In this document: piece by piece, positions 9,604 through 56,268 of the stretch | How the letters are laid out: every line of letters begins with the position of its first letter | Numbering within the stretch: the first letter of the stretch is position 1 | NCBI RefSeq assembly: GCF_017348835.2 | Contig: NZ_CP071375.1 | Reading direction: 5' to 3' (one strand) | Length of the DNA stretch: 64,000 bases | Origin: Escherichia coli | Lineage (GTDB): Bacteria > Pseudomonadota > Gammaproteobacteria > Enterobacterales > Enterobacteriaceae | Notes under the pieces: model-generated | Database searches by the model: none | Seen by the model: only the letters and a program-made list of their open reading frames with translations | Told to the model about the DNA's origin: nothing | Made by a program: the position numbers and the translations under genes

Positions 9604-10197
9604 ATGAATGAAATCATTTCTGCAGCAGTTTTATTGATCCTGATTATGGATCCGCTCGGAAACCTACCTATTTTCATGTCCGTACTGAAACATACTGAAC
9701 CGAAAAGACGGCGGGCAATCATGGTGCGAGAGTTGCTTATTGCTCTCCTGGTGATGCTGGTGTTCCTGTTTGCGGGTGAGAAAATTCTGGCATTTCTCAG
9801 CCTGCGAGCAGAAACCGTCTCCATTTCTGGCGGCATCATTCTGTTTCTGATCGCCATTAAGATGATTTTCCCCAGCGCTTCAGGAAATAGCAGCGGGCTT
9901 CCGGCAGGTGAAGAGCCGTTTATCGTGCCGTTGGCAATTCCGTTAGTCGCCGGGCCGACTATTCTCGCCACGCTGATGTTGTTGTCTCATCAGTACCCGA
10001 ATCAGATGGGACATCTGGTGATTGCTCTGCTGCTGGCCTGGGGCGGCACCTTTGTCATTCTGCTACAGTCTTCGCTATTTTTACGTCTGCTGGGCGAGAA
10101 AGGGGTGAACGCACTTGAACGCCTGATGGGATTGATTCTGGTGATGATGGCAACCCAGATGTTCCTCGACGGCATTCGAATGTGGATGAAGGGGTAA
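9604..10197 (+). CDS. yhgN: MarC-family inner membrane protein YhgN
   Basis: 197 aa multi-TM ORF, MNEIISAAVLLILIMDPLGNLPIF... Confidence 0.9.
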   Translation: MNEIISAAVLLILIMDPLGNLPIFMSVLKHTEPKRRRAIMVRELLIALLVMLVFLFAGEKILAFLSLRAETVSISGGIILFLIAIKMIFPSASGNSSGLPAGEEPFIVPLAIPLVAGPTILATLMLLSHQYPNQMGHLVIALLLAWGGTFVILLQSSLFLRLLGEKGVNALERLMGLILVMMATQMFLDGIRMWMKG

Positions 10198-10202
10198 GGT
10201 TC

Positions 10203-10242
10203 AAACAGGTGCTGCACACAACCAGACGCGGCACCTGTTTTA
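10203..10242 (+). terminator. Intrinsic terminator after yhgN (10-bp inverted repeat aaacaggtgc/gcacctgttt followed by TTTTATT)
   Basis: Inverted repeat plus T-tract immediately 3' of the yhgN stop; abuts the stop codon of the DprA-like gene on the opposite strand. Confidence 0.55.
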
Positions 10243-11445
10243 TTACCTGAACTGATAATGACCTTCGCCCAATCGGATAACCCTTCCCTCTTCTTCTGCG
10301 CGGTTCAGCCACACACTAATTTGTTCGATGGTTAAACCAGTACAAGACGCCAGCCTTTCAATACTTATCGATTCCTTTGCAAGGATCGCCAGTTCCGCCA
10401 CAAAGAGTTGATAAAAATCGACAGGCGTATACGCGGGCATTACTGCGTAATTTGCGTCATCTTCATGCAGCGAAAACAGTTCTGGTTGAGCGTTACGGAG
10501 TGCTCTGTCATACATCAGCCCAGGAACGTCTGGCAGTCTGATCGTCACATTCTCAGCCTGTTCAGCACTCCATGACGCCCCATTTTCTACTAATCGTGAA
10601 TTGGCTGATTGCATATCCTGATTTGGTTTAACCTGCACAGGCAGCCACTGATGTTTTAATGCCTCCATCGCCCCGGTTATCGTTCCACCGGTCATTCCCG
10701 CACGTACAACCATTGCGCTTTCAGCAAGGCAATAAATATATTTATTTCGCGCCATCGCATTGCCGACGGTGAAACGTACCTCTGGGTAAAACGGCGAAAT
10801 CAACACCAGGTTGCCTGCTATAAGCCCTTCACGCCATTTCACTAACGTACTCGTTTTTAACAAGCTATCAGCTAATACGCCAACGGCAGTTCCCCCGGCC
10901 TCCAGTGCCGACGCCATTGCACATTCATCAATACCTCGCGCACCACCAGAGATAACGCAAATCCCCTGTTGGGCCAGTTTCGCGGCCAGTTGTTGGGTAT
11001 AGCGCAAATCGTCAGTCGGAGCATCTCGCGAGCCAACAATCGCCATACCTTCCGCTTGCAGTAATGCTTTATTCCCGCAGCCAAATAAAACGGGAGGTGC
11101 ATCCGTTCGCAATCGGTTTTTCAAGCGAACGGGATAATCGGCATCTCCGCGGGTTAAGATCCATAAACCGGCGCGTTGCCACTTATCTACCGCCAACGCC
11201 AGACTATGACCGCGCGCCAGCAAGCCAAGAATACGCTCCTGAGAAATACGCGGATCGCTCCAGCCTGTAAGTTTATCTTGCGGTTGCGGCACCAGAAGCT
11301 CGGCGGGACTGATACGTTGGTGCTTCAGCCATAATGCAAACTTCCCCCATTCACTATTACTAAGAGGTTTATACTCACTCGCCGCCGCGCGAGAAAAATC
11401 GCTGGTTAGCAGGAGAGTTGCTTGTGCATTGGCTGAAAGATTCAT
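10243..11445 (-). CDS. DprA/Smf-like protein (SAM-like N-term, Rossmann DprA core with GGARGID motif, C-terminal winged-helix-like tail); partner of helicase-PRTase gene
   Basis: Track ORF 10243..11538; start set to ATG 11445..11443 (MNLSANAQATLLL...), which overlaps the upstream gene stop as TGATG; motif VISGGARGIDECAMASALEAGG typical of DprA Rossmann domain. Confidence 0.75.
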   Translation of the reverse strand: MNLSANAQATLLLTSDFSRAAASEYKPLSNSEWGKFALWLKHQRISPAELLVPQPQDKLTGWSDPRISQERILGLLARGHSLALAVDKWQRAGLWILTRGDADYPVRLKNRLRTDAPPVLFGCGNKALLQAEGMAIVGSRDAPTDDLRYTQQLAAKLAQQGICVISGGARGIDECAMASALEAGGTAVGVLADSLLKTSTLVKWREGLIAGNLVLISPFYPEVRFTVGNAMARNKYIYCLAESAMVVRAGMTGGTITGAMEALKHQWLPVQVKPNQDMQSANSRLVENGASWSAEQAENVTIRLPDVPGLMYDRALRNAQPELFSLHEDDANYAVMPAYTPVDFYQLFVAELAILAKESISIERLASCTGLTIEQISVWLNRAEEEGRVIRLGEGHYQFR

Positions 11446-13541
11446 CAATTTTTTACCGAGGTAGAAGCAAGGGCAAGAGGATAAACCGTCGGGCAACCTG
11501 CCTGGCCTAACAGTGCTGTCAGAACTGTCAGCGTCCATGCAGAATCCACGATATCGTCAACCAGCAACGCCGGACCAGGCATCAAAGGAGGGGTAATCAC
11601 AAACGCCCCGTCGAGATTTTGACACTGGTGGAAACGGTTTTGCTGCATTTTCTGCGGTGGATTGTCCACGACTTTTTCAATGGCATCAATAAAAGGTAAG
11701 CCAAGTTTCGCCGCCAGTCGCCGGGCAAAATCAGGAACCAGGTCGAGGTGCTTTAATGAAGGAACGCAGCATACCCAGGTTGGTTCAGGATGCGGATTCC
11801 AGCGTTGGCGAACCATTTCCGCACATGCCTCCACCAGTTCATCACTGAATCGCCCCGTTTTTTTCTCCTGTGCTACCTGCTTTCCCCACCCGGAATCTCC
11901 CCAACGAGAAAGGATTCGCCCCGTAGATCCTTGTAAACTCGCAGGCAAGTTCCCTTTAAATCCGTATTGCGTAAAAGCCCCAGCTGCCACCTGTTTATTG
12001 AGATTTAATGGCAGGTCAGCGTGTTTAATAAATAAGTTTGCCGCATGGAGTAAGCCGCTATCAATGTCGGGCGACAACAACGGATGCTGAAGACAACTGC
12101 TACATTTACCACAATGTTCGGCACCTGGCTCATCGAGTGCGCGGCGCAGAAATTGCATTTTGCACTCCTTGGTCGTGATATAGCTTTCAACGTCTGCCAG
12201 CTCACTTTTTCTCTGATTCATCAAATGGTTAATTCGTTCATGGTCAGGAGAAAAACTGACAATTGTTCTGCGCCATAATTTCTCGGTATACACCACAGGC
12301 GATGGATTTTCAGCTACCAATAATTTCAGTGCTTTTTCTATTTGCCCGTAACGGAGATTCGTCCGTTGTTCAATGCCTCGTAAGGTAAGACCGTCATTCA
12401 CGCTAAGTACGTTGAGTATTTCATGAATTTGCGCCTCCGCAGGAAAGGCGCTTTCACGGAAGAATTTATGAATAGCACGGTCTTCACTGCCGCAAAGCAG
12501 TATGCCAACAGCAGAATCGATACCGCGACCGGCACGCCCCACCTGTTGGTAGTAACCAACTATCGAACCTGGCATCTGGTAATGAATAACAAACCCCAAA
12601 TCCGGTTTGTCAAAGCCCATTCCCAGCGCCGTTGTCGCAACCAGCACTTTAATTTTATTTGCCAGCAACGCCTGCTCCAGATATTCCCTGGCAGTATTAG
12701 AATCTTCCGCGCCTTCACAAGTCACGCCGCTGTAGTAAGCAAATGCACTGATACCATTTTTCCTTAACCACTCGGCGACAAGTTCGGCATCGCGAGTAGT
12801 CAGGGTATAAACAATTCCCGATTTGGAAAACTGAGGGATAACTGTTGCTAACCATGCCAGACGGGATGACTGTTCACCTAAGACTAAGGCATCAAGCGCC
12901 AAACTTTCGCGAGCCAGCGTTCCACGCTGAATCACAATGTCACCCAATTGCTGACGGATATCCTCAACGACACGGTTATTCGCTGTCGCGGTTGTACCCA
13001 GAACAGGGGTATTCGCAGGTAGTTGGCGCAAAATATCTAATATACGTCGGTAATCCGGGCGAAAATCGTGGCCCCAATCAGAGATGCAGTGCGCCTCGTC
13101 GACCACAAGCAAGCCAATACGATCGGCTATAGGATATAAAACCGTTTCGATAAAGTCCTGGTTTGCCAAACGTTCCGGGGAAACCAGCAAGCAATCGACC
13201 TCACCTTGCAGCAACTTATCGCTAATGCGCTGCCATTCTTCTCTGTTTGTAGAATTCAACGTTTCAGCCGTAATACCTAACCGTTCAGCGGCGGCAACCT
13301 GGTTACGCATCAGGGCAAGCAAAGGAGAGATGATAATTGTCGGGCCAGCGCCGCGATCGCGGAAGATTTTACTGGCGATGAAGTACACAGCACTTTTCCC
13401 CCAGCCAGTGCGTTGGACAACCAGCAGTTTTCGCCGTTGGTTCACCACCGCGTCTATGGCTTCCCATTGCCCTTCCCTGAAAGTAGCGGTGGTATTTCCT
13501 AACATCCGCTGTAAAAGCAATTCAGCTGCGTGCTTTTCCAT
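11445..13541 (-). CDS. RecQ-family SF2 helicase fused to C-terminal ComF/GntX-type PRTase-like domain
   Basis: 698 aa; helicase motifs TGWGKS (Walker A), VVDEAHCISDWGHDFRPDY (DEAH), TATA, QQVGRAGR; RecQ-type Zn cluster CK...C..C..C (HCGKCSSC); C-terminal QNLDGAFVITPP...ALLVDDIVDSAWTLT resembles a PRTase fold with substituted PRPP loop; AGGAG SD 5 nt before ATG. Confidence 0.8.
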   Translation of the reverse strand: MEKHAAELLLQRMLGNTTATFREGQWEAIDAVVNQRRKLLVVQRTGWGKSAVYFIASKIFRDRGAGPTIIISPLLALMRNQVAAAERLGITAETLNSTNREEWQRISDKLLQGEVDCLLVSPERLANQDFIETVLYPIADRIGLLVVDEAHCISDWGHDFRPDYRRILDILRQLPANTPVLGTTATANNRVVEDIRQQLGDIVIQRGTLARESLALDALVLGEQSSRLAWLATVIPQFSKSGIVYTLTTRDAELVAEWLRKNGISAFAYYSGVTCEGAEDSNTAREYLEQALLANKIKVLVATTALGMGFDKPDLGFVIHYQMPGSIVGYYQQVGRAGRGIDSAVGILLCGSEDRAIHKFFRESAFPAEAQIHEILNVLSVNDGLTLRGIEQRTNLRYGQIEKALKLLVAENPSPVVYTEKLWRRTIVSFSPDHERINHLMNQRKSELADVESYITTKECKMQFLRRALDEPGAEHCGKCSSCLQHPLLSPDIDSGLLHAANLFIKHADLPLNLNKQVAAGAFTQYGFKGNLPASLQGSTGRILSRWGDSGWGKQVAQEKKTGRFSDELVEACAEMVRQRWNPHPEPTWVCCVPSLKHLDLVPDFARRLAAKLGLPFIDAIEKVVDNPPQKMQQNRFHQCQNLDGAFVITPPLMPGPALLVDDIVDSAWTLTVLTALLGQAGCPTVYPLALASTSVKN

Positions 13542-13639
13542 CTTTATCTCCTGCGATCTTTAGGCAGTGATTAGAACGGATTATTTGCAGGTAAATTTGC
13601 GAGAGAGATCAAAAAGATGAAGAGAGGAGAAAAGAGAAA

Positions 13640-13667
13640 TGAATTACTGCGAGCAAGCTCGCAGTAA
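13640..13667 (-). terminator. Intrinsic terminator after gntU (palindrome ttactgcgagc-aa-gctcgcagtaa, U-tract on minus-strand RNA)
   Basis: Near-perfect 11-bp inverted repeat just 3' of the gntU stop (13681), followed by T/C-rich run on the transcribed strand. Confidence 0.55.
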
Positions 13668-13680
13668 TTTGTCGCAGTAA

Positions 13681-15021
13681 TTAACTCAACAGCTGGAACG
13701 CAATCATCCCAACGATGGCACCAACAGTGCCGAGGATGGTTTCCATCATGGTCCAGGTTTTCAGCGTTTCGGCTTCGGTCGCGCCGGTAAATTTACCGAA
13801 CAACCAGAAACCGGCGTCGTTAACGTGGCTGACAACAATCGAACCACCGGCGATACAAATCGACAGCGCCGCCATTTGCGCACCGGAATAGTTCAGTTGT
13901 TCAATGACCGGCATCACCAGCCCCACCGCCGTTAAACAGGCAACGGTGGCAGACCCCTGAATGATGCGCACTGCAGCTGCCAGCACGAAGCAGGTGATAG
14001 CAATCGGCAGGCCCATGCCGGTTAACGCTTCGCCCAGTGCCGGACCTACGCCAGAGTCAACCAGCACCTGTTTGAACACGCCGCCCGCACCAATCACCAG
14101 CAGAATGATCCCCGCCGGTTGCAGCGCGTGACCGCAAATCTCCATCACTTTGTCTTTTGGCATGCCCTGACGCATTGCCAGACCGTAAATCGCCACCAGA
14201 CAAGCAACCAGAATCGCGGTAAACGGATGACCAATAAACTCGAACCATTCGTAAGCGGTAGAGCCTTCCGGCACAAAACGCGCGGCAATGGTTTTCAGCC
14301 CCACCAGCACCAGCGGCAGCAGGATCAGCGACAGGCTGAATCCGAAGGACGGCATTTTGCCTTCGCCGAGATGCGGCTCGCTGATGTCGTCAGGAATATG
14401 CAGCTCAACGTAACGGCTGATGAAGTTACCCCACAGCGGCCCGGCAATAATCATTCCCGGAATTGCCGCACACAGGCCAATCAGGATCATCCAGCCAAAA
14501 TCGGCGTTCATCTGCGATGCCAGCAGCATTGGCGCTGGCCCTGGCACCAGGAACGCCGCCGCTGCCGCCACGCCTGCGAATAATGGGATTACCAGCTTCA
14601 CCAGGTTCGTACCGGTGTGGCGCGCCATTGAAAAAGCAACGCTAATCAGCAGAACAATCGCCACTTCAAAGAACAGCGGTAGCGCACAGACCAGCCCCGC
14701 AAGGCCGATGGCATAATGCGCGCGGCTGTGACCGAAGGATTTGAGCATTTTGACGGCAATCTGATCGACTGCGCCGGTTTCATGTAAGATCTTGCCAAAC
14801 ATAGCTCCCAGGGCGACAACCACCGCCAGGAAGCCGAGGGTGCCTCCCATCCCTTTTTCCATCGTCGCTGCGATTTTATCGAGCGGCATACCGGAAAAAA
14901 GGCCAGCCCCCATGGACACCACCATCAAAGCCAGGAAAGCGTGCATACGCGCCTTCATGACTAAAAACAGCAGCAGTAAAACAGACCCTACTGCTGTTAA
15001 AACAAGCGTTAATGTAGTCAC
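13681..15021 (-). CDS. gntU: Low-affinity gluconate transporter GntU
   Basis: 446 aa GntP-family permease ORF, MTTLTLVLTAVGSVLLLLFLVMKARMH... Confidence 0.93.
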   Translation of the reverse strand: MTTLTLVLTAVGSVLLLLFLVMKARMHAFLALMVVSMGAGLFSGMPLDKIAATMEKGMGGTLGFLAVVVALGAMFGKILHETGAVDQIAVKMLKSFGHSRAHYAIGLAGLVCALPLFFEVAIVLLISVAFSMARHTGTNLVKLVIPLFAGVAAAAAFLVPGPAPMLLASQMNADFGWMILIGLCAAIPGMIIAGPLWGNFISRYVELHIPDDISEPHLGEGKMPSFGFSLSLILLPLVLVGLKTIAARFVPEGSTAYEWFEFIGHPFTAILVACLVAIYGLAMRQGMPKDKVMEICGHALQPAGIILLVIGAGGVFKQVLVDSGVGPALGEALTGMGLPIAITCFVLAAAVRIIQGSATVACLTAVGLVMPVIEQLNYSGAQMAALSICIAGGSIVVSHVNDAGFWLFGKFTGATEAETLKTWTMMETILGTVGAIVGMIAFQLLS

Positions 15022-33367: not shown

Positions 33368-33751
33368 ATGAAGCTGACCATCATTCGATTAGAAAAATTT
33401 AGCGACCAGGACCGGATTGACCTGCAAAAGATCTGGCCGGAGTATTCCCCTTCCTCTTTACAGGTTGACGATAACCACCGCATCTACGCCGCACGTTTCA
33501 ACGAGCGCCTGCTTGCTGCTGTACGCGTAACCTTGAGCGGCACCGGGGGGGCACTGGATTCTCTGCGCGTGCGGGAAGTCACCCGACGTCGCGGCGTGGG
33601 GCAATATCTGCTGGAAGAGGTGTTAAGTGATAATGCCAGCGTTTCATCCTGGTGGATGGCGGATGCAGGCGTAGAAGATCGCGGTGTGATGACGGCGTTT
33701 ATGCAGGCACTGGGATTTACGGCACAGCAGGGCGGCTGGGAGAAGCGTTAA
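33368..33751 (+). CDS. panM: PanD maturation factor PanM/PanZ (GNAT-like)
   Basis: 127 aa MKLTIIRLEKFSDQDRIDLQKIWPEY... Confidence 0.88.
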   Translation: MKLTIIRLEKFSDQDRIDLQKIWPEYSPSSLQVDDNHRIYAARFNERLLAAVRVTLSGTGGALDSLRVREVTRRRGVGQYLLEEVLSDNASVSSWWMADAGVEDRGVMTAFMQALGFTAQQGGWEKR

Positions 33752-34275
33752 TCGCTCTGTGTAAAAAGCAGTTCAATGGATTTGGTTGGGAAAAATAACG
33801 CATTTTCGTTTTCCCCGACTAAAGGGATAAAGCCCAGCGATTTATAAAACGTATGGGCTTTTTCATTCAGCGCCTCGACAAAAAGACCGTGAATACCTAC
33901 CGCTAAAGAGGCTGACCAGACGACTTTCATGGCATGAGCAACCAGTGTTGCTCCCCATCCCTGCCCCTGTAATGAACGATCAATTGCCAGACGCCCAAGA
34001 GTGACGCTGGGAATATTTTTGTAGGGAATTTTTTTCTGTTTCGATTTCGAGGGCAATGCGGCTCGTTCAAAACAACTGCCGGATAATGTGTAATATCCCA
34101 GCACCTGACGTTCTGGAGTGTTGCGACAAAGGATATACGCTCGCAGAATTTTGTTGCGATGTTGACGAACGAGATGTGTCGTCAGAAAGAGATTTAACGC
34201 TTCCTCGCCGCAGTCGAATCGCTGTAGATCATAATCTGCATCATCGGTCAGAATCTCTATCGTCAGATCATCCAT
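33748..34275 (-). CDS. ataT: GNAT-family acetyltransferase toxin (AtaT/ItaT/TacT-like tRNA-acetylating toxin)
   Basis: 175 aa MDDLTIEILTDDADYDLQRFDCGEEALNLFL...; lies directly downstream of a DUF1778 antitoxin gene; 4-bp convergent overlap with panM. Confidence 0.7.
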   Translation of the reverse strand: MDDLTIEILTDDADYDLQRFDCGEEALNLFLTTHLVRQHRNKILRAYILCRNTPERQVLGYYTLSGSCFERAALPSKSKQKKIPYKNIPSVTLGRLAIDRSLQGQGWGATLVAHAMKVVWSASLAVGIHGLFVEALNEKAHTFYKSLGFIPLVGENENALFFPTKSIELLFTQSD

Positions 34276-34281
34276 AAATTA

Positions 34282-34548
34282 TTACATTCCCTGAAGACGT
34301 TTTGCCGCACGTTTTAGCTTTTCACCTGGTGACGGTGGATTACTCAGCGCATCCATCACCCGCATCCAGGATTCCTCATTGAGGATCACCCGCCGATGTT
34401 GTTCAATCACTTCCGCAGCCCGCTGCGAAGCGCTGTTCAACATAAATTGGCTGACGGACTGATTAGATATCGCTGCCGCTTCCTCAATCATACTTTTGTC
34501 ATCGTCAGTTAAACGCAGATCGATACGCTGCTTTTTAACAGCAGACAT
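34282..34548 (-). CDS. ataR: DUF1778 (RHH) antitoxin of GNAT toxin (AtaR-like)
   Basis: 88 aa MSAVKKQRIDLRLTDDDKSMIEEAAAISNQSVSQFMLNSA...; ribbon-helix-helix N-terminus; AGGAG SD. Confidence 0.7.
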   Translation of the reverse strand: MSAVKKQRIDLRLTDDDKSMIEEAAAISNQSVSQFMLNSASQRAAEVIEQHRRVILNEESWMRVMDALSNPPSPGEKLKRAAKRLQGM

Positions 34549-55636: not shown

Positions 55637-55996
55637 TTATAAATGATTCAAACGCTCATTCAGTGTTTCAATAATATAGGTATTAACAGAGACTTGTTGC
55701 TGCGCAGCCGCATTATTAAGGCGTTCACTCAGCGATTCTGGATAACGTAACGTAAAGGTTTTAATCTTTTCTGTACGCGCATACGGCTCAATACCCGCAG
55801 CTTTACAATCCTCAAGATACTCTCGCAGGGAAAGCTCTCCTTCTTTTTGCAGCCCCTGAATACTGTCAGAGACAAAATCACAATAACCTGACAAGCCCAG
55901 GAATTTGCCACGAAATGCATTCAGTTCTGGCACGTAAGTGATAACTGCAGGTTGCCCGGCAATCTCCATAGAGTTTGGCGTCTTCAGTTTGATCAT
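55637..55996 (-). CDS. hicB: HicB-like antitoxin (RNase-H-like N-domain + C-terminal ribbon-helix-helix)
   Basis: 119 aa; C-terminus KTFTLRYPESLSERLNNAAAQQQVSVNTYIIETLNERL is a CopG/RHH DNA-binding motif; start overlaps upstream hicA-like stop (ATGA). Confidence 0.7.
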   Translation of the reverse strand: MIKLKTPNSMEIAGQPAVITYVPELNAFRGKFLGLSGYCDFVSDSIQGLQKEGELSLREYLEDCKAAGIEPYARTEKIKTFTLRYPESLSERLNNAAAQQQVSVNTYIIETLNERLNHL

Positions 55997-56268
55997 GGTT
56001 TTACCCCTATACTTAGTAACCAGTCACGCACGCTTTCTACAGCGCCTTTATCGGTATCTGGCGACGGATGAGGCCGATGGAAACACGCAACGCTCATATT
56101 TAGTATGAACTTACAACGCGAACCTCTTCCTTCCTTAATTTCTCCGCCTAACGCTTTAACCAGAGATTCTATATCAGTCCATTTGATTCCTTGAGGTAAA
56201 GGTGATTTAAATAGCTGATCCAGTGTGTTTTTTTGTTTCTTTCGTAAAGCCTGTACCTGTGTTTACAT
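55993..56268 (-). pseudogene. hicA: HicA-like mRNA-interferase toxin reading frame interrupted by TAA at codon 2
   Basis: Frame reads ATG-TAA-TQVQALRKKQKNTLDQLFKSPLPQGIKWTDIESLVKALGGEIKEGRGSRCKFILNMSVACFHRPHPSPDTDKGAVESVRDWLLSIGVKP-TGA; TTGACT/TAAAGT promoter-like elements and AGGGA SD precede the ATG; only in-frame ATG downstream is 34 codons from the end. Confidence 0.5.

Follow-up and report, generated by a model that had tools for sequence, protein, structure and literature searches.

The closest known counterparts of the gene pair examined here are RqlH and RqlI of Escherichia coli F11, whose genes form one operon as judged by RT-PCR (Russell & Mulvey 2015, PMC4670107). The toxicity of F11 RqlH resides in its phosphoribosyltransferase (PRTase) domain, the substitutions D663A and DIVD663EVME both abolish this toxicity, and reciprocal co-immunoprecipitation of RqlH and RqlI is lost when RqlH is shortened to residues 1-509 (PMC4670107). 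Rescue from RqlH was obtained with the functional 'full-length RqlI (1-400)' and also with RqlI 1-320, the 'HTH' tail being dispensable for antitoxin activity (Russell & Mulvey 2015, PMC4670107). Deletion of rqlI caused a colonisation defect whereas deletion of rqlHI did not, and the authors preferred a cooperative role in DNA maintenance over a pure toxin-antitoxin role; of the gene junction they state merely that the genes are 'close to or overlapping' (PMC4670107). RqlH occurs without RqlI in nearly all or most Gram-positive bacteria (PMC4670107). The Mycobacterium smegmatis RqlH of Ordonez et al., as summarised in PMC4670107, likewise joins a RecQ-like helicase to a C-terminal PRTase domain and is 41% identical to F11 RqlH, and is described there as having no RqlI partner.

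PsyrTA, which has been equated with RqlHI (Millman 2022), was reported as a toxin-antitoxin pair (Sberro 2013) and as an anti-phage system (Millman 2022), and is a PADLOC/DefenseFinder family. Protection against phage was demonstrated for a PsyrTA homologue whose psyrA deletion derivative could not be transformed, whereas E. coli NILS69 PsyrTA gave no detectable protection against the phages tested and impaired the growth of K-12 expressing it. In ShosTA (Kimelman 2012; Pu 2025, PMC11961720; Yang 2026, PMC12961424) a PRTase-domain toxin causing DNA damage and filamentation is likewise combined with a DprA-like antitoxin. ShosT, however, has no helicase, unlike RqlH, and ShosA does not bind ShosT but neutralises it (type IV) through ssDNA and RecA, whereas RqlI co-immunoprecipitates with RqlH. 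Canonical DprA/Smf is a recombination-mediator protein of natural transformation associated with competence genes, unlike RqlI, which is genetically tied to a toxin.

Identification of the rqlHI/PsyrTA locus

The window, a stretch of 64,000 nucleotides of E. coli DNA, contains on its minus strand a toxin gene lying directly 5' of its antitoxin gene, as in PsyrTA/RqlHI, the two overlapping by one nucleotide:

11445-13541, minus strand, rqlH (psyrT), encoding the 698-aa toxin; TGA stop at 11447-11445
10243-11445, minus strand, rqlI (psyrA), encoding the 400-aa DprA-like antitoxin; ATG at 11445-11443
11443-11447, minus strand, stop/start junction TGATG, read directly from the sequence

The pair is the published RqlH/RqlI, that is, the PsyrT/PsyrA system, and is already known, since both proteins give full-length PADLOC matches and their lengths (698 and 400 aa) and the positions of K49, D148 and DIVD663 are as published. 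RqlH matched the PsyrT model PDLC03928 with E=0 and 1063 bits (its residues 3-697 aligned to positions 5-687 of the 689-position profile), and RqlI matched the PsyrA model PDLC03927 with an E-value of 3.8e-202 (residues 32-431 of the longer open reading frame discussed below, on profile positions 1-397 of 398). Species, gene order, protein lengths and the three residue positions all agree with F11, making this in effect the same locus, although the F11 genes come from another strain and allele and were compared through published lengths and residue positions. The window locus is nearly identical to that of pig isolate PE164, and five other E. coli alleles, one of them from ST131, differ from it in a few percent of their codons, for the most part by synonymous changes. 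These matches and the F11 data bear out the proposal in the initial annotation of an effector-regulator or toxin-antitoxin pair with a DprA-like antidote, and two of the experiments it named, co-purification and toxicity rescue, had already been published for F11, both with positive outcome (co-immunoprecipitation; neutralisation of RqlH by RqlI). We consider it very likely that the region is an rqlHI/PsyrTA operon in which rqlI is translated from the ATG at 11445-11443, most probably by termination-reinitiation after rqlH.

RqlH combines a RecQ-family helicase with a PRTase-like domain

The toxin comprises a RecQ-family SF2 helicase core (residues ~20-340), a weak RecQ zinc-binding region and a C-terminal PRTase-like domain (~509-698), with Pfam matches to DEAD (4.9e-25), Helicase_C (9.5e-13), RecQ_Zn_bind (0.003) and Pribosyltran (0.018). 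The last match is weak, and the loop LLVDDIVDSAWT with D663 is present; K49 (Walker A), D148 (DEAH) and DIVD663 occupy their published positions.

11544-11555, minus strand, DIVD663-666 of RqlH, PRPP-binding loop of the PRTase domain, in the context ALLVDDIVDSAWT
13548-13552, minus strand, Shine-Dalgarno sequence AGGAG of rqlH, 6 nt 5' of the ATG at 13541

Membership in the RecQ family is indicated by NCBIfam recQ_fam (TIGR00614; 253.8 bits against a cut-off of 219.8). RecQ proper, with RQC and HRDC domains, was rejected, the TIGR01389 equivalog scoring 298 bits against a cut-off of 640.2 and covering the helicase core only (residues 9-365). Also rejected was DpdF of the Dpd DNA-modification system: its PADLOC match was far weaker than that of PsyrT, NCBIfam DpdF gave 150 against 550 bits, and no dpd genes were found among the neighbours of rqlHI.

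RqlI is a DprA-like protein with a winged-helix tail

RqlI is composed of a helical N-terminal region, a Rossmann (DprA/SLOG) domain, a linker of low confidence (residues 303-341) and a winged-helix tail. Its full-length AF2 model has a pLDDT of 84, and Pfam DNA_processg_A (PF02481) matched with an E-value of 5.6e-51.

10927-10947, minus strand, GGARGID motif of the Rossmann/DprA domain, RqlI residues 167-173 in the numbering of the 400-aa form
10249-10416, minus strand, C-terminal winged-helix domain, RqlI residues 344-399, AF2 local pLDDT about 90

The GGARGID motif noted earlier is indeed present and conserved in 25 homologues, among which four positions (G167, A169, G171, D173) never vary and two others (G168, R170) hardly do. 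The winged-helix-like tail proposed alongside it is supported by the predicted structure: the isolated domain was modelled with a pLDDT of 94.1 in the order helix, short strand, two helices, two strands, and all Foldseek matches were winged-helix proteins, namely ArsR 6J0E (TM 0.77), Z-alpha DLM-1 1J75 (TM 0.75-0.82, rmsd 1.8), IclR and MarR, with E-values of just 0.005-0.07. The C-terminus of ShosA, in contrast, is disordered. Binding of ssDNA or of a nucleotide has been shown for the related ShosA only.

The domain plan of canonical DprA/Smf (helical N-domain, Rossmann domain, C-terminal winged helix) is found in RqlI together with the GSR and GGARGID motifs, and the best fold matches in the PDB were DprA 3MAJ of R. 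palustris (3.6e-17) and ShosA 8ZVA (1.4e-15), with 3UQZ also matched. RqlI is nevertheless only ~19-26% identical to solved DprAs, and canonical DprA was rejected as an assignment because the scores fell below both cut-offs (102 bits against 191.15 for TIGR00732; 79.9 bits against 495 for PRK10736). The RefSeq name 'DNA-processing protein DprA' accordingly indicates the family and nothing more specific. ShosTA was rejected as well, RqlI fitting the ShosA models (3.2e-27, partial) far worse than PsyrA and the toxin carrying a helicase; no ShosT model appeared among the 25 toxin PADLOC matches listed, which were helicase models. Sequence searches found no solved structure of RqlH, RqlI or PsyrTA, the nearest being DprA (E ~1e-11), ShosA (~4e-7) and RecQ cores.

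Probable translational coupling at the rqlH-rqlI junction

Direct reading of the minus strand confirmed the one-nucleotide TGATG overlap described earlier: the rqlH TGA and the rqlI ATG have one nucleotide in common, the A at 11445, and this ATG is in frame with the open reading frame terminating at 10243, giving a 400-aa RqlI (MNLSANAQ...) encoded by 1203 nt including the stop. The end coordinate 11447 first assigned to the DprA-like gene marks instead where the rqlH TGA begins and has to be corrected, the rqlI CDS being 10243-11445. The junction is unchanged across six E. coli alleles.

Short overlaps are ordinary in this DNA; of the 36 neighbouring same-strand gene pairs in the remaining 47.5 kb of the window, 11 share 4 or 1 nt and 16 have a spacing of -4 to +6 nt. 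By itself, then, the overlap is not beyond chance. Conservation of the junction does exceed chance: the rqlH stop lies within -4 to +6 nt of the rqlI start at all 80 species-level loci compared (41-62% RqlI identity), -1 nt in the window, with the geometry varying between ATGA (41 loci), a 1-nt overlap (12) and spacings of +1 (22), +3 (4) and +6 (1). This conserved spacing favours translational coupling of rqlH and rqlI; coupling and the fixed stoichiometry claimed with it are suggested by the junction geometry, its conservation and the general literature, in which reinitiation in E. coli requires such short distances and is nearly abolished at about 20 nt, and in which short gene overlaps are enriched among subunits of heteromeric complexes.

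The Shine-Dalgarno sequence of E. coli rqlI is degenerate (GGTAA, -3.1 kcal/mol), whereas the anti-SD duplex of rqlH reaches -7.4 kcal/mol. Because this signal is weak and the start codon has one base in common with the rqlH stop, ribosomes completing rqlH would most likely reinitiate on rqlI, and each finished round of toxin translation would then yield antitoxin synthesis, though the toxin-first gene order is unusual.

It is also conceivable, if unlikely, that the internal ATG is the correct start and the overlap reflects mere operon compaction, 30S subunits initiating de novo on the weak rqlI signal and an A-rich leader at a level independent of rqlH. The commonness of 1- and 4-nt overlaps in the window fits this explanation; an SD-like GGTGA, GGGGA or GGAGA, which most orthologues retain 6-8 nt before the start (mean -5.4 kcal/mol), could support independent initiation; and in O157:H7 and O55:H7 the rqlI frame is intact although rqlH translation must end at codon 203. 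Against it stand the spacing, which all 80 species maintain although the geometry has changed repeatedly, the degenerate signal in E. coli itself, the tight coupling of experimentally tested E. coli pairs with comparable overlaps, and the fact that RqlH and RqlI form a complex, overlaps being enriched among genes for such partners.

Beyond coupling as such, we offer tentatively, and with some doubt, the idea that the near-universal abutment (80 of 80 species) may have been selected as a safety interlock, the antitoxin coming mainly from ribosomes that have just finished the toxin; the weak-SD rqlI start would then be largely silent unless toxin translation had been completed. The junction is a real feature, correctly read at the outset, already known and of low interest, and its practical value is small; its strict conservation does provide a testable prediction on how a toxin-first operon stays safe. 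It brings the PRTase chemistry of RqlH and the phage trigger of PsyrTA no nearer.

Predicted function of the module

The rqlHI pair would constitute an accessory chromosomal toxin-antitoxin or anti-phage module between yhgN and gntU. The toxicity of RqlH, and its binding and neutralisation by RqlI, are published for the F11 proteins of equal length and numbering and may be expected here by analogy. The PRTase-like domain, if unrestrained, would be genotoxic, with SOS induction and filamentation as in F11, and RqlI would bind RqlH in a manner dependent on the PRTase domain and neutralise it. By analogy with ShosTA, the antitoxin would be lost or sequestered on phage infection, which would set the toxin free. 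As for PsyrTA, both family models are matched over their full length and a RecQ-like helicase with a PRTase domain is paired with a DprA-like antitoxin, although anti-phage activity was demonstrated for a different homologue.

Quite improbable in our judgement is the explanation that the pair is a DNA-transaction module for competence or recombination (helicase, ComF-like PRTase and DprA loader) whose toxicity is a side-effect of imbalance. The homology of RqlI to DprA, the resemblance of the PRTase and helicase domains to ComFC/ComFA (discussed in PMC4670107), the cooperative beneficial function on DNA proposed by Russell & Mulvey (PMC4670107), the missing phage protection by NILS69 PsyrTA and the solitary RqlH of most Gram-positive bacteria are all compatible with such a role. 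It accords poorly with the scores of RqlI beneath the DprA equivalog cut-offs, the accessory, cleanly inserted nature of rqlHI, the colonisation defect after deletion of rqlI and its absence after deletion of rqlHI, the phage protection by a PsyrTA homologue whose psyrA deletion was not transformable, and the decay of rqlH to a pseudogene with retention of rqlI in O157:H7 and O55:H7.

The start codon of rqlI

The frame of rqlI is open upstream of the junction, and RefSeq (PGAP) annotates the longer, 431-aa form (MDADSS...) in all eight E. coli records examined.

11446-11538, minus strand, upstream extension of the rqlI frame by 31 codons from the ATG at 11538, part of the RefSeq CDS

This extension is read in a different frame from rqlH, within whose final 31 codons it lies; its ATG arises from the rqlH codons GCA-TGG (Ala-Trp), and it is confined to the E. 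coli protein cluster. All 118 RqlI homologues from outside E. coli (47-72% identity) start at a methionine aligned with the internal ATG, an in-frame ATG upstream of the rqlI start occurs in only 3 of 80 species, and position 1 of the PsyrA profile corresponds to Met32 of the 431-aa frame, which together uphold the choice of the internal ATG made in the initial annotation. In the 93-nt overlap, six E. coli alleles have just three variable sites, all three non-synonymous in the extension frame and two of three in the rqlH frame, which is too small a number for a verdict, and the anti-SD duplex energies of the two candidate starts, being identical, do not discriminate between them. On the basis of the 118 homologues and the published 1-400 construct, translation of rqlI is predicted to start at 11445-11443; the extension is probably not translated as RqlI, and the 431-aa call appears over-extended.

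That RqlI is instead made from the ATG at 11538, initiating independently within rqlH and reducing TGATG to an internal methionine with no role in coupling, is highly improbable: the open frame, the PGAP calls, the retention of this ATG and the open extension in all eight E. coli alleles examined and an SD-like GTGGA before it, equal in energy to the internal start (-3.1 kcal/mol), agree with it, and the homologues, the species survey, the PsyrA profile, the by-product origin of the codon, the uniformly non-synonymous polymorphisms and the sufficiency of 400-aa RqlI for rescue and binding all oppose it. As a corollary of the interlock idea, the E. coli-specific extension might give rise to a further RqlI isoform made independently of coupling. 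RefSeq lists E. coli rqlI as a 431-aa 'DprA'; comparison of the homologues speaks instead for a DprA-like antitoxin of 400 aa, and correcting start and name matters for construct design and the interpretation of proteomics.

Insertion site and flanking signals

Base-by-base comparison with MG1655 delimited the segment carrying the operon, which substitutes the entire 56-bp yhgN-gntU intergenic region of K-12; of the 5426 complete E. coli genomes, 1650 (30%) carry rqlHI, in every case on the chromosome.

10198-13680, strand not applicable, accessory segment with rqlHI, 3483 bp
13642-13669, minus strand, terminator-like hairpin with a 12-bp stem, AATTACTGCGAGC / GCTCGCAGTAATT, from the terminator scan
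10203-10240, strand not applicable, hairpin AAACAGGTGC...GCACCTGTTT, putative bidirectional terminator, from reading of the sequence

An insertion of a mobile element with repeats was rejected, since both boundaries coincide exactly with stop codons, those of yhgN and gntU, and the comparison with MG1655 showed no duplication flanking the segment. The hairpin at 10203-10240 lies between the stop codons of yhgN and rqlI and was not flagged by the terminator scan, whose loop maximum is 8 nt. A sigma-70 promoter scan of 10100-13750 returned zero sites against 4.1 expected by chance, and the rqlHI promoter was not located. The hairpin at 13642-13669 directly follows the gntU stop and sets gntU apart from the rqlHI promoter region, in which copies of an 11-mer were spotted by eye.

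Identification of the gene pair and its junction

The analyzed region (10000-13700) is 100% identical to the E. coli chromosome of the pig isolate PE164, and 4 bases differ in the further 47.5 kb of window compared. The minus strand carries a 698-aa ORF (13541-11445) and, after it, a second ORF ending at 10243, whose longest mechanical form reaches back to an ATG at 11538 (431 aa). The initial annotation had placed a TGATG overlap between the helicase and DprA-like genes, rqlH and rqlI, and direct reading of bases 11447-11443 (minus strand) resolved it into two codons:

11447-11445, minus strand, TGA stop codon of rqlH, closing the 698-aa ORF
11445-11443, minus strand, ATG of rqlI, in frame with the ORF ending at 10243 and giving a 400-aa product (MNLSANAQ...)

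Because the TGA ends the first ORF and the ATG is in frame with the second, the one-base overlap is real; the end coordinate proposed for the DprA-like gene, 11447, corresponds to the T that opens the stop codon, and the ATG begins at 11445.

PADLOC profiles identified both proteins at full length, the first as PsyrT (E=0, residues 3-697 on profile positions 5-687 of 689) and the second as PsyrA (3.8e-202). PsyrTA is RqlHI by another name (Millman et al. 2022), described in E. coli F11 with an RqlH of 698 aa and an RqlI of 400 aa (Russell & Mulvey 2015, PMC4670107). The match of the window to F11 is based on these shared protein lengths and on the presence in the window RqlH of K49, D148 and DIVD at 663-666, the residues mutated in F11 in the helicase (K49A, D148A) and PRPP loop (D663A, DIVD663EVME) (PMC4670107). 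The TGATG feature is thus real, correctly read and already known, and what is added here is limited to a likely over-extension of the RefSeq start with an over-specific product name, the quantified conservation of the tight rqlH-rqlI junction, and the observation that rqlH has decayed in the O55:H7/O157:H7 lineage while rqlI has been kept.

In Pfam searches RqlH matched DEAD and Helicase_C, with weak matches to both the RecQ Zn-binding and PRTase domains, and RqlI matched DNA_processg_A (5.6e-51) and SLOG cluster 4. Judged by profile scores, RqlH is a RecQ-family member (253.8 bits, cut-off 219.8) yet not RecQ itself (298 bits, cut-off 640), and RqlI is DprA-like and not DprA, since its 102 bits against the DprA equivalog fall below the cut-off of 191. 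Several PADLOC "DpdF" models also matched RqlH fragments very strongly, including a 74-residue model on residues 625-698 (1.4e-52) and a 255-residue model on residues 462-694. RqlH-like or split RqlH sequences evidently went into the building of some DpdF HMMs, which could lead to mislabelling of the proteins they match.

Start codon of rqlI

RefSeq/PGAP calls rqlI as a 431-aa gene overlapping rqlH by 94 nt in all eight E. coli records opened. The Shine-Dalgarno (SD) strengths at the two candidate starts are equal, and within E. coli the 31-residue extension is open in all alleles, which with only three variable sites says little about the start. The preference of the initial annotation for the internal ATG is favored by several other observations. 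Position 1 of the PsyrA profile falls exactly on Met32 of the 431-aa ORF. Of the 120 best-matching homologues, 118 lie outside the E. coli cluster (47-72% identity), and every one of these starts at the aligned Met, with the conserved N-terminus MN-LS-x-x-AQATLLLT; the extension occurs in the E. coli cluster only. When DNA was compared, an in-frame ATG ahead of the next upstream in-frame stop was present in 3 of 80 species, and the 400-aa RqlI is functional in F11 (PMC4670107). The ATG at 11538 is formed by the rqlH codons GCA-TGG (Ala-Trp) and is therefore a by-product of the toxin coding sequence. Translation very likely begins at ATG 11445, giving the 400-aa form. The RefSeq start is probably over-extended and the product name, "DNA-processing protein DprA", too specific for a protein below both NCBIfam DprA cut-offs.

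Probable translational coupling

Elsewhere in the window, 11 of 36 adjacent same-strand gene pairs have an overlap of 4 or 1 nt; a 1-nt overlap by itself is not distinctive. Across 80 species, with loci picked by similarity to RqlI, the distance from the rqlH stop to the rqlI start was invariably between -4 and +6 nt (ATGA, 41; 1-nt overlap, 12; +1, 22; +3, 4; +6, 1), the geometry being repeatedly altered and the genes never separated. Rare exceptions with kilobase gaps exist (PMC4670107). In E. coli gene pairs, termination-reinitiation needs such short distances and is nearly gone at about 20 nt, and subunits of heteromeric complexes, such as RqlH and RqlI form (PMC4670107), are enriched in short overlaps (Huber et al. 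2023). Given the 80 conserved junctions, this precedent and the complex, we consider it a well-founded reading that the two genes are probably translationally coupled, with RqlI synthesized by reinitiating ribosomes. Many orthologues have SD-like GGTGA or GGGGA motifs, from which rqlI could be initiated independently of rqlH. The "fixed stoichiometry" proposed alongside coupling goes beyond the evidence.

Domain organization of RqlI

The DprA Rossmann motif GGARGID, noted initially, lies at RqlI residues 167-173 in invariant or nearly invariant alignment columns. In an AF2 model (pLDDT 84), the N-terminal region is helical and is followed by a Rossmann domain; residues 303-341 form a low-confidence linker to a C-terminal module built of a helix, a short strand, two helices and two strands. 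The best PDB fold matches were DprA (3MAJ, 3.6e-17), ShosA (8ZVA, 1.4e-15) and S. pneumoniae DprA (3UQZ), followed by MoCo-carrier and LOG proteins, a resemblance that accounts for the "MoCo-binding domain" annotated in the 2015 paper. Modelled in isolation (pLDDT 94.1), the tail matched only winged-helix folds (ArsR, Z-alpha of DLM-1/ZBP1, IclR, MarR) with TM-scores of 0.7-0.8 and E-values of just 0.005-0.07, as expected at 60 residues, and the predicted fold supports the winged-helix-like tail suggested before. The tail is not needed for antitoxin activity (PMC4670107). A search by sequence found no solved structure of RqlH, RqlI or PsyrTA.

Published function and proposed mechanism

[quoted passage not shown] RqlH toxicity, seen as SOS induction, filamentation and a raised mutation rate, requires this domain, the genotoxic effector, which is restrained by the helicase domain and by RqlI; RqlI 1-400 and 1-320 rescue cells and N-terminal truncations do not (PMC4670107). 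Because that study contains the co-immunoprecipitation, toxicity and rescue experiments, the partner experiments proposed with the initial annotation have already been done, and their outcome is the toxin/antidote pairing it expected.

In the related ShosTA system, the toxin binds PRPP and disturbs purine metabolism, while its DprA-like antitoxin, an unstable protein, binds ssDNA and RecA (PMC11961720, PMC12961424). By analogy, infection might free the RqlH toxin; the analogy is only partial, because ShosA leaves its toxin unbound whereas RqlI binds RqlH. One E. coli PsyrTA, from NILS69, gave no protection against the phages tested.

Genomic setting, distribution and decay of rqlH

Relative to K-12 MG1655, a 3483-bp segment (10198-13680) stands in place of the entire 56-bp yhgN-gntU intergenic region, with both edges exactly at the yhgN and gntU stop codons and loss of the K-12 bidirectional terminator. 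No flanking repeats or integrase were found with this segment, which supplies its own hairpins:

after gntU, hairpin with a 12-bp stem (terminator scan)
between yhgN and rqlI, second hairpin (from the sequence)

A scan of 10100-13750 found no sigma-70 consensus promoter; rqlH has a strong SD (AGGAG, -7.4 kcal/mol). Of 5426 complete E. coli genomes, 1650 carried the rqlH-rqlI junction segment, always on the chromosome. The module is thus accessory, as would suit an island for defence or a toxin-antitoxin system.

In genomes of the O157:H7 and O55:H7 serotypes (NZ_CP017249, NZ_CP133120, NZ_CP038394), the counterpart of window 11445-13541 is a pseudogene, with a common 1-nt deletion at rqlH nt 516 that ends translation at codon 203. 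PNUSAE145590, which is one of two O157:H7 records, also carries a 29-bp insertion at nt 1787. In these records rqlI remains an intact ORF; the lineage has a decayed toxin and has kept an orphan antitoxin.

The 11-mer AATTACTGCGA occurs three times between gntU and rqlH, just past the end of gntU (13642-13680, minus strand), twice in direct and once in inverted orientation, and the last two copies form a terminator-like hairpin. They could serve as the gntU terminator only, or additionally as a putative operator for the RqlI winged-helix tail. The PE164 annotation places two small toxin-antitoxin pairs elsewhere in the window, both on the minus strand: ataR/ataT between livJ and panM (33748-34548) and hicA/hicB, with a 4-nt overlap, between yhhJ and nikR (55637-56223). 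Two neighboring genes with a DUF4049 domain occupy the far end (61616-64000, minus strand).
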